From Betaproteobacteria bacterium RIFCSPLOWO2_12_FULL_68_20 (lineage in GTDB: Bacteria; Pseudomonadota; Gammaproteobacteria; Burkholderiales; SG8-39), in contig MERQ01000020.1 of NCBI GenBank assembly GCA_001770655.1, positions 4,272 to 68,271 on the forward strand: a stretch of DNA of 64,000 nucleotides. Direction: 5' to 3'. Within the stretch, counting starts at the first letter, position 1. Each line of letters begins with the position of its first letter. The notes beneath the pieces were generated by a model. The model saw only the letters and a list, made by a program, of their open reading frames with translations, had not been told where the DNA came from and did not search any database. Of the stretch, positions 2,960-32,356 are shown piece after piece. The translations under genes were made by a program, and so were the position numbers.

Positions 2960-5050
2960 TCACCCCTCCCTCGACGCCGTCGCAAGCGGCTGCCGCGCGC
3001 CCGCCCCGAAGCTCATATGCCTGTCCACCTCCAGCCCCTGCGGCAACTGATGCGCAATGAACAAAATCGTCGCCGCCCCCTTCAAGGCATTCACCGTCAG
3101 CGCCAGGCTCTCCGCAGTCTTGTTGTCGAGATTGCTCGTCGCCTCGTCGAAAATCAAAATCCTCGGCCGCTTCAGCAGCGCCCGCGCGATCGCGATGCGC
3201 TGCTTCTGCCCGCCCGAGAGCCCGACCCCGTGCTCGCCCAGAAGCGTCTGATAGCCCTGCGGCAGCTTCTCGATCACCTCGTGGATCTCCGCCGCCTTGC
3301 ACGCGCCGACGATGTCCTCGAACCCGGCGTGCGGGTTCGCCATGGCGAGGTTGTCGTACACCGTCCCCGAGAAAAGCATCGTCTCCTGCGGCACCACGCC
3401 GAAGGCCTGGCGTAATTCGTTCGCCGACAGGTGGCCGATGTCGCGGCCGTCGAGCAGGATCCGCCCGTCGCCGGGCTGGTAGAAGCCGAGCAGCAGCTTC
3501 GCGAGCGTGCTCTTGCCGCAGCCCGAGGGGCCGCTCACCACCACCAGCTCGCCCGCGCGGAGCGCCAGGTCCAGGTTGCGGAAGAGATACGGATGCCGCT
3601 CGCTGTAGCGAAACGAAAGACCCTGCAGCTCCACCATCCCCGCCCCGCCCGGCTCGCGCGTCGGCGCGAGCGAGACCGGCTCGGCAGGCGCGTTCATGAT
3701 GTCGCCCAGGCGCTTCACGGCGATGTTCGCCTGCTGGAACTCCTGCCACAGGCCCGCGATCCTCAGCATCGGCTGCGCCATGCGCGCGGCAAACATCTGG
3801 AAGGCGACCAGCATGCCGATGGTGAAGCCGTCGTTGCGCATCACGAGCAGCGCCCCGACCACCAGGATTGCCATGGTCATCAGCTGCTCGAGCGCGCTCG
3901 CCACCACGTTGTAGGTGTTGGAGAGCTGGCGCGTGGCGAAGCCCGAGGCGAGGTAGGCGGCGAGGTAGTCGCCGAAGCGCCGCTCGAGCACCGGCTCGAA
4001 CTGCAGCGTCTTCACCGTCTCGACGCCCGCGATGTACTCGGTCATGAACGCCTGGTTGCGCGCGCCCAGGAGGAACTGGCGGTTGATGAGCTCGCGCAGC
4101 AACGGCGTGACGAGCACGCTGATCCCGGCGAGCACGACCACCACCCCGAGCGCGATCAGCGAGAGCTGCCAGCTGTAGGCGAGCATCACCGCGATGATCA
4201 CGACGAGGAACGGCAGATCGAGCACGAACGAGATCGCCGCGCCGGTGATGAAGTTGCGGATCGTCTCCACCCCCTGCAGGCGCGCGACCGTGGTGCCGGT
4301 CGGGCGGTGCTCGAAGTACGGCAGCGGCAGGCGAAAGAGGTGGCCGAAGACCTGCGTCGCGAGCACCGCGTCGACGCGGTTCCCGGTGTGCAGCACCAGG
4401 TACTGGCGCATCCAGCCCATCGCGGCGTTGAACACGAGGAACATCGCCAGGCCCACGGCGATCGCGATCAGCGTGCTCTGAGTCTGGTGCACGACCACCT
4501 TGTCGATAATGACTTGCGTGAAAAGCGGTGTGGACAGGCCGATGACCTGGATGGCCAGGGACGTCAGCAGGACGTCCCGCCAGATGCGCCGGTGCTTGGC
4601 GAGCTCGGGGACGAACCAGCGGAAGCCGAAGGACTTCGGCTCCTCGGGAGCTCCAGGCAGCGGCTCGGTCTCCACCGGGTCGCGCGCCGCAAGCATGACC
4701 TGCGGCTCGAACAAGGCGTCGAATTCGGTGGAAAGGCCCGTGCGCGCGGCGTCGCTGCCCGCCTCGACGTAGATCACGCGCTCGCCGTCGTGCTTGAGGA
4801 TGAGCGCGGGAGCGCCCGAGAGGAGAAACGCGACGGCGGGGAGCGGCAGCGCGTCGAAGCGCCCTCCGCGTGCGCCCGTGAAGCCGGTCTTGAATCCGTA
4901 GGCTCTCGCGGCGCTCTGCAGCGCGGCGCGGTCGTACGGCGGCGGGAACTGCTGCGCGAGCAGCGCCGAGTCGAACGGAACGCGGTGGATGCGGCAAAGG
5001 CTGCCGATCACCCAGGCGAGCTGCTCGAAGCGGAACTCTTCGCGTTCCAC
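2960..5050 (-). CDS. Type I secretion ABC transporter, HlyB family (C39-like domain + TMD + NBD)
   Basis: Walker A GPSGCGKST, signature LSGGQKQR, Walker B ILIFDEATS. The HlyB-type TMD carries LFTQVIIDKVVVH and HTGNRVD. The N-terminal C39-like domain lacks the QxxxxDCG catalytic motif. GGAGGA SD before a GTG start. Confidence 0.93.
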   Translation of the reverse strand: MEREEFRFEQLAWVIGSLCRIHRVPFDSALLAQQFPPPYDRAALQSAARAYGFKTGFTGARGGRFDALPLPAVAFLLSGAPALILKHDGERVIYVEAGSDAARTGLSTEFDALFEPQVMLAARDPVETEPLPGAPEEPKSFGFRWFVPELAKHRRIWRDVLLTSLAIQVIGLSTPLFTQVIIDKVVVHQTQSTLIAIAVGLAMFLVFNAAMGWMRQYLVLHTGNRVDAVLATQVFGHLFRLPLPYFEHRPTGTTVARLQGVETIRNFITGAAISFVLDLPFLVVIIAVMLAYSWQLSLIALGVVVVLAGISVLVTPLLRELINRQFLLGARNQAFMTEYIAGVETVKTLQFEPVLERRFGDYLAAYLASGFATRQLSNTYNVVASALEQLMTMAILVVGALLVMRNDGFTIGMLVAFQMFAARMAQPMLRIAGLWQEFQQANIAVKRLGDIMNAPAEPVSLAPTREPGGAGMVELQGLSFRYSERHPYLFRNLDLALRAGELVVVSGPSGCGKSTLAKLLLGFYQPGDGRILLDGRDIGHLSANELRQAFGVVPQETMLFSGTVYDNLAMANPHAGFEDIVGACKAAEIHEVIEKLPQGYQTLLGEHGVGLSGGQKQRIAIARALLKRPRILIFDEATSNLDNKTAESLALTVNALKGAATILFIAHQLPQGLEVDRHMSFGAGARQPLATASREG

Positions 5051-5160
5051 TCCTCCCCCTGCCTTTTCTCAGTCGACGGCGCCGCCTTCCCCAGCAGCCC
5101 GCCCCTACGGCCGAAAGGTTACCACCGACCGGTCTCGAAGTGCGGTAAAAAGCAGTAACG

Positions 5161-5230
5161 ATTCAAGGAGTTAAATCGGACGGAGAGATAAATTCGAAGC
5201 GGCGCACAGAGCTGCATTAGGAGCTTGATT
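5161..5230. promoter_or_regulatory. Two IHF-like sites next to the tRNA 3' end
   Basis: ATTCAAGGAGTTA (5161-5173, +) and AATCAAGCTCCTA (5218-5230, -) each differ by one base from the IHF consensus WATCAANNNNTTR. Confidence 0.25.
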
Positions 5231-5234
5231 CGAT

Positions 5235-5322
5235 TGGCGGAAGGGGTGGGATTCGAACCCACGAGGGCTTTCGCCCCTCCGGTTTTCAAGACCGGTGCAT
5301 TCAACCGCTCTGCCACCCTTCC
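5235..5322 (-). tRNA. tRNA-Ser (anticodon UGA)
   Basis: GGAAGGGTGGCAGAGCGGTTGAATGCACCGGTCTTGAAAACCGGAGGGGCGAAAGCCCTCGTGGGTTCGAATCCCACCCCTTCCGCCA folds as a cloverleaf with a long variable arm and an encoded CCA. Confidence 0.98.
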
Positions 5323-5432
5323 ACGCTTGAAAAAGCGGTGTCGCGCCGGCATTTTATGTCGCGGCAGGTGAAACTTCATGGTCGTCTGCTAGTCTTATGC
5401 ACGAGCGAGAAATCGCACCAAGGAGGGAAGGA

Positions 5433-6164
5433 ATGGAACCCGAGTTGAAGCCAGTACGAACCAACGACCAGGTTTTCGGGCGCGGAGCGAGCTACGAGGC
5501 GGCGCGCGAAGCCGTCATCGCGCCGTCCGCGCAGAAAGTCCTGCGCAACACCTACCTGCTGCTCGCCCTGACGATGGTGCCGACGGTGATCGGCGCCTAC
5601 ATCGGCATGCAGACGGCGGGCGTCATCATGGCGAGCCCCATCGTGAGCACGCTCGTCCTGCTCGCGGCGGTGATCGGGCTGCAGTTCGGCATCGCGGCGA
5701 ACCGCAACAGCGGCATCGGCATCGCGCTGCTGCTCCTCATGACCGGGTTGCTCGGCTGGTGGCTGGGGCCGATCCTGAACGTCGCGCTCGCGATGAAGAA
5801 CGGCATGCAGCTCGTCGGCTACGCCGCGCTCGGCACAGGCGCGATCTTCGTCGGCATGGGCGCGATCGCCGCCACGACCAAGCGCGACTTCAGCTTCATG
5901 GGGAAATTCCTCTTCGTCGGCATGATCGCGCTGCTGGTGGCGATGCTCGCCAACCTGTGGCTGCAGATCCCGGCGCTCGCGCTGACGATCTCGACGCTGG
6001 TGATCGTGGTGTTCTCGCTGTTCCTGCTCTACGACCTGAACCGCATCGTGCGCGGCGGCGAGACCAACTACCTGATGGCGACCACGGGCGTGTACATGAG
6101 CCTGTTCAACATCTTCGCCAACCTGCTGCACCTGCTGATGGCCTTTGCGGGCGAGCGCGAATAG
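5433..6164 (+). CDS. yccA: Bax inhibitor-1/YccA family membrane protein
   Basis: Motifs KVLRNTYLLLALT and ETNYLMAT..YMSLFNIF; about seven hydrophobic segments; AGGAGG SD. Confidence 0.9.
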   Translation: MEPELKPVRTNDQVFGRGASYEAAREAVIAPSAQKVLRNTYLLLALTMVPTVIGAYIGMQTAGVIMASPIVSTLVLLAAVIGLQFGIAANRNSGIGIALLLLMTGLLGWWLGPILNVALAMKNGMQLVGYAALGTGAIFVGMGAIAATTKRDFSFMGKFLFVGMIALLVAMLANLWLQIPALALTISTLVIVVFSLFLLYDLNRIVRGGETNYLMATTGVYMSLFNIFANLLHLLMAFAGERE

Positions 6165-31087: not shown

Positions 31088-31220
31088 TCCCCATATGAGA
31101 TAATGAACGCGATTTCGCAGCGAAACGGGGGCGACCTGGTTTCGACGCGGGTCACGAAGCAGCGCAGGGCATGCCGAGGACCAGATCACCTCGCAAATCC
31201 AGTCTGGAAACACTACAAAC

Positions 31221-31253
31221 GCCAACGACGAGCGTTTCGCTCTAGCGGCCTAA
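31221..31253 (+). other. tmRNA proteolysis tag reading frame (A)ANDERFALAA
   Basis: GCC AAC GAC GAG CGT TTC GCT CTA GCG GCC TAA. Confidence 0.9.
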
Positions 31254-31479
31254 TACCCGCTGGACGCTGCACTAGCTTGCTGATGGGCTAGGCCTTCGAA
31301 AGAAGGTGCAGCGTCATTCACATCAGCCCCTCTTCCCGGCTTGGCCGCTTGGCCGGGAGGATCCGTCGAAGCGGCTGGCCGAGCGTCAGCCTGCCGGCCG
31401 GCGGGCGCAAGGCGAGACCCAAACGACCTGGCTAAGCATGTAGTCCTGACTGTGTAGGGCTTGCGGACGCGGGTTCGAT

Positions 31480-31744
31480 CAGCATGGTCGCCTCTGCCCG
31501 AGAGGGCAGAGTGACAACGGGGCTCACATCGGCGAACCCTGTGCTGCCGAAAAGCAGCGTGGCAACGCCGAGGGGTAGGAAGAGGGCCAACCTCAGGCCT
31601 GCCCTGTAGAGACTCATAGAACCGCTGGGGGAAACCTGAGCGGCCACTAGGACCCGGCCGGTGCAAGGCCGGGTAACACGCCCCGCATCCTGGCGACAGG
31701 ATGAAGGCATAGTCCAGCCCGCCCCGAAAGGGGTGGAACAGCTG
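31480..31744 (+). mobile_element. Group I self-splicing intron (265 nt, no internal ORF) in the tmRNA T-loop
   Basis: P1 has a U31479-G31487 wobble at the 5' splice site and the intron ends in G31744. Other elements: P2 CTCTGCCC-GAGA-GGGCAGAG; P3 CGGGGC/GCCCCG; P4-P5 region TCGGCGAACCC...GGCAACGCCGAG; P7 GAGACT/AGTCC; J8/7 AAGGCAT; P8 and P9 GNRA hairpins; P9.0 AGC/GCT. Confidence 0.92.
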
Positions 31745-31766
31745 TCCCGCCGCCTCCACCAAATCC

Positions 31767-31800
31767 ACGGCTGCCCGCTTAGGGCAGCCGTCTTCTTTTC
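31767..31800 (+). terminator. ssrA terminator
   Basis: ACGGCTGCCC-GCTTA-GGGCAGCCGT followed by CTTCTTTTC. Confidence 0.8.
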
Positions 31801-31833: not shown

Positions 31834-32280
31834 ATGAGCCGTCCTCGCCTCGTCCACCGTTTGCAGTCCGATTGCGCCGCCTATCTTGCCGGACTGATCG
31901 ACGGCGAGGGAACCGTAACCCTGACGCGATTGCATCGGTACGGAAATCGACGGCTTGTCGTATCCATCAGCAACTGCGAACTCGCGATTCTCGAGCACGT
32001 CAGGAACGGCATCGGCGCTGGAAAGATAACGTCAAAGAAGACGTACCGCGAGCACCACGCGAGAAGCTTTACGTATCAGATTTCGAGCCGCCAGGCGCTC
32101 CAGCTTCTCGTTCAGGTCGTCGGTTTCATGAAATCGTACAAGGCCGAGCGGGCCCGGCTGGCGCTCCTTGAATATCTGCGAGTCACCCCGAGAAACGGCC
32201 ACTATCGGCCCGAGGTGGCGGTCGCTCGACGCAATTTCGAGGCGAGACTGCTCGCAATCGTTCCGCGACTTGCAAGCTGA
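31834..32280 (+). CDS. Free-standing single-motif LAGLIDADG homing endonuclease
   Basis: AAYLAGLIDGEGTVTL is a canonical LAGLIDADG helix, followed by basic beta-strand segments (RRLVVSISN, GKITSKKTY, SFTYQISS). 148 aa from ATG 31834; GTG at 31807 is an alternative start. Confidence 0.88.
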   Translation: MSRPRLVHRLQSDCAAYLAGLIDGEGTVTLTRLHRYGNRRLVVSISNCELAILEHVRNGIGAGKITSKKTYREHHARSFTYQISSRQALQLLVQVVGFMKSYKAERARLALLEYLRVTPRNGHYRPEVAVARRNFEARLLAIVPRLAS

Positions 32281-32356
32281 ACGCCGTGGTTCGCCGGCCC
32301 GACTCCCTCCGCCAATCGGGTCTCCGGATAGAATCCGCGCTTTTCCTGGGACTCTC

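Follow-up and report, generated by a model that had tools for sequence, protein, structure and literature searches.

The first group I intron in the T-loop of a tmRNA was reportedly described by Williams in 2002, from Clostridium botulinum. The C. botulinum intron is cited as self-splicing. A tmRNA database of 2025 holds 883 unique intron-form tmRNA sequences from 21 phyla, and its supplementary table counts 159 intron-form instances in Pseudomonadota among 183,138 genomes (PMC11915505). The introns in the database are mostly placed at "position 7" of the T-loop, follow the -1 U / omega-G rule, contain a P7.1 region and have a mean length of 293 nt (PMC11915505). Endonuclease genes were sought there only inside the introns, and 36 of the 883 carry one, about 96% being ORF-less (PMC11915505). 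Collaborative homing, the other described arrangement which comes close to the present locus, is known from phages, with S-PM2 psbA/F-CphI and Aeh1 nrdA/mobE as the examples (PMC3984707).

In the window, i.e., the whole 64-kb stretch of DNA analysed here, the ssrA gene is interrupted by an insert at 31480–31744. With a probability of roughly 0.93 we consider this insert to be a genuine ORF-less group I intron, located between nucleotides 6 and 7 of the T-loop, the splicing of which is needed by the only ssrA of the genome. It is a further instance of the catalogued class and possibly one already listed in the 2025 database. A first-pass annotation of the same DNA had called tmRNA T-loop introns reported but rare; the former holds, and the latter has to be qualified by the 883 sequences, 21 phyla and 159 pseudomonadotal instances given above. 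As an intron the insert adds one more lineage to the class, and the linked endonuclease gene and duplicated 3' ends described below are the more useful and less ordinary part of the locus.

Anatomy of the interrupted ssrA gene

The gene order of ssrA is standard, on the + strand, with the following parts.

31127–31479, + strand: ssrA 5' exon, 353 nt (Rfam RF00023, and ARAGORN on the in-silico spliced sequence)
31221–31253, + strand: tmRNA tag reading frame, GCC AAC GAC GAG CGT TTC GCT CTA GCG GCC TAA, read as ANDERFALAA and stop
31480–31744, + strand: ORF-less group I intron, 265 nt (alignment of 39 homologues, Rfam Intron_gpI)
31745–31761, + strand: ssrA 3' exon, TCCCGCCGCCTCCACCA, 17 nt, with T-loop nucleotide 7, the 3' strand of the T-stem, the 3' strand of the acceptor (G3•U70) and ACCA
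31767–31800, + strand: intrinsic ssrA terminator; stem of 10 bp, 8 of them G-C, then CTTCTTTTCC

The 5' end of the gene, GGGGGCGA at 31127, was taken from ARAGORN run on the in-silico spliced sequence. The 5' exon contains the acceptor 5' strand GGGGGCG, the tag frame, the pseudoknots, the 5' strand of the T-stem and the first six nucleotides of the T-loop (GCGGG TTCGAT), and it ends with ...GGACGCGGGTTCGAT at 31479. The insert between the exons starts with CAGCATGG and ends with ACAGCTG. The Rfam tmRNA model (RF00023) matched 31135–31481 (145.8 bits) but did not extend over the last 16 positions of the model, and ARAGORN called no tmRNA in the 64-kb window. When 31480–31744 was deleted in silico, ARAGORN called a tmRNA of 370 nt with the tag ANDERFALAA; without the deletion there was no call. 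The joined exons form a canonical T-arm, GCGGG-TTCGATT-CCCGC (5 bp and 7 nt), with the G3•U70 acceptor. The corresponding exon-joined 32-mer GGACGCGGGTTCGATTCCCGCCGCCTCCACCA, which covers the T-arm and the 3' end, was searched for in 60 relatives and is uninterrupted in 22 of them, all 32 bases being identical, and no uninterrupted copy of it was found in the source genome. Since the 32-mer is intact in 22 relatives, the boundaries of the intron are fixed independently of any model. The junction to be expected in spliced RNA is ...GGUUCGAU-UCCCGCC, alternatively written GGGUUCGAU-UCCCGCC.

The first-pass annotation had placed the break of ssrA at 31479 and its resumption at 31745, around an insert of 265 nt, which was exact to the base according to both the sequence itself and the 32-mer in the 22 relatives. 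It had also stated that removal of the insert restores a T-arm of 5 bp and 7 nt, in agreement with the ARAGORN tmRNA obtained after deletion and the 32/32 match, and that standard finders miss or truncate such genes, as indeed they do here: ARAGORN found none in the window, and the Rfam match ends at the T-loop. An essential ssrA is thus missed or truncated by standard tools, which would record an intact ssrA as absent from this genome and from no fewer than 105 related species genomes.

Fold of the intron and maturation of the tmRNA

The structural elements assigned to the insert and its flanks are listed below.

31476–31481/31485–31490, + strand: P1, CGAU/CA (splice site at the slash) with UGGUCG; U31479•G31487 at the 5' splice site
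31492–31499/31504–31511, + strand: P2, GAGA loop
31518–31523/31680–31685, + strand: P3, CGGGGC/GCCCCG
31529–31534/31566–31571, + strand: P4
31538–31562, + strand: P5 hairpin
31572–31579/31598–31605, + strand: P6
31582–31585/31591–31594, + strand: P6a
31609–31614/31711–31715, + strand: P7, G(A)GACU/AGUCC with bulged A31610
31617–31649, + strand: P7.1
31652–31674, + strand: P7.2
31687–31692/31697–31702, + strand: P8, GCGA loop
31703–31710, + strand: J8/7, GAAGGCAU
31716–31717/31742–31743, + strand: P9.0, AG/CU
31719–31725/31730–31736, + strand: P9, GAAA loop
31744, + strand: omega-G, the terminal guanosine directly before the 3' exon

The structure alignment comprised 39 homologues with less than 80% identity. 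P1, P2, P3, P4, P5, P6, P6a, P7.1, P7.2, P8, and P9 were obtained by RNAalifold on these 39 sequences, and P7, which is a pseudoknot, and P9.0 were added to the model before the pairs were counted. Over the resulting 77 pairs in 14 helices, 97.2% of the cells in the 39 sequences were paired, as compared to 35–43% when the 3' partners were slid by 1–3 columns, and none of 500 shuffles attained any of the observed pairing measures. Compensatory change was recorded in 35 of the 77 pairs. P3 switches between G-C and A-U in 16 of the 39 sequences, and double changes are abundant in P2, P6a, P7.1, P7.2, P8, and P9. The U•G at the 5' splice site is kept in all 39 sequences, with the adjacent pair varying between C-G, U-G, and U-A; P4, P7, J8/7, P9.0, and omega-G are likewise invariant throughout the alignment. 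Covariation supports all helices but the invariant ones (P7, P4, and P9.0), on which it is no test. An identical core combined with compensatory change in the variable helices points to purifying selection on the intron fold.

The Rfam model Intron_gpI could be aligned over its whole length (1–253 of 253) and gave the same P3, P4–P6, P7, and J8/7, with P7 and the J8/7 of the window aligning to AGACUA...AAGAUAUAGUC of the consensus. The score was 19.2 bits against a gathering score of 50, with an E-value of 0.019 which is valid for the 751-nt search only, and at the gathering threshold no group I intron was reported by Rfam in the whole window. The seed of this model consists of 12 sequences, 0 of them bacterial, and a threshold of 20 bits has been used by others for the group I introns of tRNA and tmRNA genes from bacteria. 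The P7.1/P7.2 periphery resembles that of subgroup IA, and we keep the assignment at IA-like. Every hallmark named in the first-pass annotation (P1 with its U-G, P2, P3, P7, J8/7, P8, P9, P9.0, omega-G, and the GNRA loops) is present, and its identification of a group I intron in the tmRNA T-loop stands on the full core, the published main subsite and the constraint across at least 105 species genomes. It had further proposed recovery of the core by a covariance model, and here the outcome was divided, the end-to-end alignment being obtained at a score below the cut-off.

The genome from which the window comes (3.48 Mb; 96% complete in 109 contigs) contains a single tmRNA match that exceeds the cut-off, the other matches being tRNAs. 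A second intact ssrA, which according to the same annotation would mean that the present copy need not be functional, was not found in this 96%-complete, 109-contig assembly, and smpB is intact. With one ssrA and an intact smpB, the mature tmRNA almost certainly arises by splicing of the intron-bearing precursor. The core, the subsite, the constraint, the sole ssrA and the intact smpB taken together are sound grounds on which we infer that maturation of the tmRNA requires this splicing.

The primary transcript, reaching from 31127 to approximately 31800, would be spliced by the standard group I route, with the intron presumably acting as the catalyst. Free guanosine would attack after U31479, held in P1 by the U•G wobble, and in the second step the terminal G31744 would dock in the pocket of P7, upon which the exons are ligated. 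Ligation would rebuild the T-arm GCGGG-UUCGAUU-CCCGC and the acceptor stem with G3•U70, both of which are needed by alanyl-tRNA synthetase and SmpB. Trans-translation in this organism would thus be dependent on a ribozyme, and ribosome rescue would rest on it.

Two other explanations of the insert were weighed against splicing. It might be a decayed relic that no longer splices, making ssrA a pseudogene, in which case stalled ribosomes would be rescued by factors of the ArfA/ArfB type or by a second ssrA that was left unassembled. An assembly of 96% completeness in 109 contigs and the low Rfam group I score give this idea some room. However, 38 diverse homologues share every element of the catalytic core with the insert in identical form, the variable helices pair via compensatory changes, and the exons are identical to functional intron-less alleles; as smpB is intact and the genome contains no further tmRNA match, we hold a relic to be extremely unlikely. 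Two-piece tmRNAs occur in Alpha- and Betaproteobacteria, and the insert could be imagined as an intervening sequence cut out by protein RNases, leaving a two-piece tmRNA like the permuted forms. The Rfam model tmRNA_permuted does give a partial, sub-threshold match at 31100–31253 (45.5 bits against a cut-off of 47), but this match spans only the 5' tRNA-like and tag region common to all tmRNAs, and the gene order is the standard one and not permuted. The insert has a complete group I core, a U•G at the 5' splice site and an omega-G, and a break in the T-loop would leave a 3' piece of 17 nt held by just 5+7 base pairs, which brings the probability of excision by RNases close to negligible. Excision as a group I intron is the reading we retain.

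The intron, the endonuclease gene and the duplicated 3' ends in related genomes

A 23-mer from J8/7–P7'–P9, GGATGAAGGCATAGTCCAGCCCG, was used as query against approximately 185,000 species genomes and was present in 105 of them. The carriers are mostly soil MAGs with the labels Steroidobacteraceae, Burkholderiales, Casimicrobiaceae, and beta/gamma-proteobacterium. All 105 loci show the same architecture, namely GGGTTCGAT, an insert of 259–341 nt (471 in one case), a G, and TCCC(G/C)CC...CCACCA, and in every one of them the 3' end of the intron reads GCTG directly before TCCC. The T-stem covaries across the insert, with GCGGG/CCCGC in some of the 105 loci and GGGGG/CCCCC in others. Among 61 relatives the intron was carried by three (G000, G011, and G001) and was absent from 58; the survey of ssrA in related genomes that the first-pass annotation had suggested thus returned both states, with the uninterrupted 32-mer in 22 of 60. 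A divergent subfamily of the intron, with the J8/7 GGUGAAGGAAUAGUCC, occupies the same site of ssrA in three loci (L119, L123, and L128). Overall, the intron family is patchy through soil Burkholderiales and Steroidobacteraceae genomes. Two carriers have labels that do not fit: L052 (JBLNDO010000028.1, labelled Bacillota), in which the intron region is 79% identical to that of the window, and L030 (CAYOVM010000035.1, labelled Enterobacteriaceae) both contain a proteobacterial soil-type intron and tmRNA, and their taxon labels look like misbinning or mislabelling.

Downstream of ssrA the window contains three further features.

31834–32280, + strand: free-standing gene of a LAGLIDADG homing endonuclease with one motif (YLAGLIDGEGT), 148 aa; outside the intron, 72 nt downstream of ssrA
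32292–32313, + strand: tentatively, a decayed copy of the T-arm and 3' end from an ssrA without intron, CGCCGGCCCGACTCCCTCCGCC versus CGCGGGTTCGATTCCCGCCGCC, 17 of 22 bases
32325–32337, + strand: weak terminator-like hairpin after the remnant

The product of the free-standing gene scored 21.2 and 20.9 bits with Pfam LAGLIDADG_1 and LAGLIDADG_3, just below the cut-offs of 23.1 and 22.5, and precomputed Pfam hits are present for many of its homologues. A profile of 20 homologues searched against PDB matched only LAGLIDADG enzymes, including I-MsoI, the bI3 maturase, I-Vdi141I, and I-CreI, and D23 and E25 of the LAGLIDGEG motif are invariant in the 20 aligned proteins. The AF2 model (pLDDT 93.2) has the alpha-beta-beta-alpha-beta-beta-alpha fold, with I-CreI as the top Foldseek matches (TM 0.72–0.75). 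Among intact homologues dN/dS is about 0.12–0.3, dS being saturated. In metagenomes the family comprises at least 2,618 clusters.

The gene was found in exactly the three relatives of 61 that have the intron and in none of the 58 without it; the hypergeometric chance of this co-occurrence is 1 in 35,990, with shared ancestry ignored. A locus search with the endonuclease as query returned two loci only, and much more was learned by tblastn of the 105 intron loci. Downstream sequence of 650 nt or more was available for 92 intron loci. In 35 of these a homologue stands no more than 400 nt from ssrA, 21 of the homologues being of full length and free of stops and the other 14 broken or partial; the remaining 57 loci have none. 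This series of intact, broken and absent genes is a classic case of invasion, decay and loss. The gene also follows the divergent intron subfamily in L119, L123, and L128, while an independent member of the family, L125, has no ssrA within 1.5 kb. The intron is less diverged than its host ssrA gene. The rank correlation of distances between intron and endonuclease (rho 0.40) exceeds that between intron and tmRNA body (rho 0.10), phylogeny being ignored in both, which is suggestive of an intron that tracks the endonuclease better than the tmRNA body.

Some single loci deserve mention beside this series. In L011 (approximately 1100–1440; G001, JBBINV010000006.1) the homologue is degenerate (AGSIGGDGT) and truncated after about 65 codons, and its frame continues into hydrophobic, membrane-protein-like sequence. 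Palindromes of the LexA-box type, CTGT-N8-ACAG, abut the start of the endonuclease gene in L020 and L097 (53–54 nt past ssrA) and in L125, as compared to a background rate of 0.003 per 300 nt, which hints at SOS-controlled expression of the endonuclease in some lineages; as a general feature the box was dismissed, being absent from the window and from most loci. Reverse-transcriptase ORFs of group II introns (RVT_1, GIIM) adjoin endonuclease homologues in L126 (83–1399) and L125 (2370–3131), and past the endonuclease gene of L126 there is also a perfect remnant (24 nt) of the ssrA 3' end, so that several mobile elements appear to pile up at the same spot.

A LAGLIDADG protein so tightly linked to an intron might also act as a maturase in the folding of a protein-dependent intron and have no role in mobility, and the bI3 LAGLIDADG maturase is indeed the second-best PDB match of the profile. 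We regard this as very unlikely. The gene is missing from 57 of the 92 intron loci and broken in 14 more, and the intron core is conserved nevertheless; in L118 an intact homologue stands next to an intron-less ssrA; and the acidic E25 of LAGLIDGEG is kept in 20 of 20 proteins, as expected of an active nuclease. A mobility endonuclease remains our reading of the gene.

The remnant in the window starts 12 nt past the stop codon of the endonuclease gene. Several other loci contain a second, intron-less T-arm and 3' end approximately 10–35 nt past this gene, the copies matching in 24 of 24 bases in L110 and L020 and in 22 of 24 in L068, with further ones in L118 and L097. In L097 and L105 the repeat includes a copy of the terminator. 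The segment 32292–32313 can be aligned to the evident remnants which L110, L020, L068, L118, and L097 have at this position, and is probably a decayed remnant of an intron-less ssrA 3' end. We considered and rejected the possibility that the endonuclease gene lies inside a longer intron that has its true 3' splice site at the distal repeat: T and not G stands before these distal copies, and they contain the 5'-exon side of the junction (GCGGGTTCGAT followed by TCCC). Both properties mark them as displaced intron-less ends and not as alternative 3' splice sites.

Two loci have a functional ssrA without an intron and with the compensatory T-stem variant GCGAG/CTCGC. In L118 (2526–3460, JBDTRO010000043.1) there follow after this ssrA the terminator, then an endonuclease homologue that is intact and 69% identical, and finally a 3'-end remnant of the GCGGG type, and the variant may be an alternative, intron-free route to an immune functional copy. 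In L064 (approximately 4830–5700, oriented; JBOIEI010000397.1) the variant ssrA with its terminator is followed, at a distance of about 170 nt, by a displaced copy of the intron which is truncated at its 5' end and has a 3' exon (TCCCGCC) and a terminator of its own, an arrangement which we read as evidence of serial replacement of ssrA 3' ends. Second copies of the ssrA 3' end were also seen in two intron-less relatives, 155 nt away in G020 (C297:5341–5527) and 4.7 kb away in G042 (C7:106519–111279; partial, 26 of 32 bases), both resembling the att-type repeats of elements that have integrated at ssrA.

An ORF-less intron and an endonuclease gene linked at the same target gene and co-distributed, both in the three of 61 relatives and in 35 of the 92 loci, suggest a collaborative-homing cassette, in which the free-standing endonuclease probably supplies the mobility of the intron in trans. 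That the intron is the immunity half of a selfish cassette homing into ssrA we would call an even bet. Such a cassette would consist of the ORF-less intron (or, in some genomes, the compensatory T-stem variant GCGAG/CTCGC), a 3' exon and a terminator brought in as replacements, the free-standing gene of a homodimeric LAGLIDADG enzyme, and the native T-arm and 3' end, intron-less, displaced and decaying. In ssrA alleles that are still naive, the endonuclease would cleave the T-arm DNA, which is a palindrome by nature, and the cassette would be copied in with the universally conserved ssrA body as the left homology arm and the carried remnant as the right one. By later recombination between the 3'-end repeats the endonuclease gene would be lost, and what stays would be the "clean" ORF-less introns which dominate databases. 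The T-arm DNA is a pseudo-palindrome, as would be expected of the target of a homodimeric LAGLIDADG enzyme, and a swapped pair in the stem would alter both half-sites; the remnants and the variant T-arm of L118 are indirect hints at cleavage of this target. In the literature covered, which was incomplete, no account of such a cassette at ssrA was found. If true, it would be the first collaborative homing on a bacterial chromosome and at an RNA gene, and would explain why only about 4% of tmRNA introns contain an endonuclease gene. The endonuclease gene and the duplicated 3' ends thereby offer a testable account of the spread of ORF-less tmRNA introns. The intron, the T-stem variant and the remnants would form a natural allele series for studies of the arms race between endonuclease and target, and a compact family of I-CreI-like enzymes may recognise a tRNA-like palindrome.

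Comparison with known systems

The intron of the window shares with the intron-form tmRNA class the host gene, the subsite (nucleotides 6/7), the -1 U / omega-G rule, the P7.1 region and the lack of an ORF, and with 265 nt it is somewhat shorter than the mean of 293 nt. The free-standing gene downstream and the duplicated 3' end are not described in PMC11915505. Unlike the introns of the C. botulinum type, the present one is hosted by a soil lineage of Burkholderiales/Steroidobacteraceae and not by Bacillota. Bacterial group I introns of the tRNA anticodon loop, such as the tRNA-Ile intron of Azoarcus (IC3), are likewise ribozymes of small size, lacking an ORF, whose host is tRNA-like and whose P2 and P9 are capped by GNRA loops, but the window intron is inserted in the T-loop instead of the anticodon loop and has the P7.1/P7.2 which IC3 lacks. 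The P4–P6 sequence of the window, UCGGCGAA.CCU...GGCAACGCCGAG, is one which we take to be similar to that of the Azoarcus IC3 intron.

With I-CreI, I-MsoI, and I-CvuI the endonuclease has in common the single motif, the length of about 150 aa, the alpha-beta-beta-alpha-beta-beta-alpha fold and the TM of 0.72–0.75 to I-CreI; it differs from this family in being free-standing and not intron-encoded, with 15–20% identity. Genomic islands at the 3' end of ssrA likewise bring in a 3' end and displace the native copy downstream as a direct repeat, whereas the cassette of the window has no integrase and measures only about 0.6–0.9 kb (intron or variant T-arm, terminator, and endonuclease gene). The likeness to collaborative homing in phages lies in an ORF-less intron and a free-standing endonuclease tightly linked at a conserved target gene. 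The phage cases concern protein-coding genes and enzymes of the HNH or Endo VII type, whereas the present, putative case concerns a structural RNA gene on a bacterial chromosome and a LAGLIDADG enzyme of the homodimer type, and unlike the phage cases the cassette would carry its own 3' exon and terminator and a displaced native 3' end.
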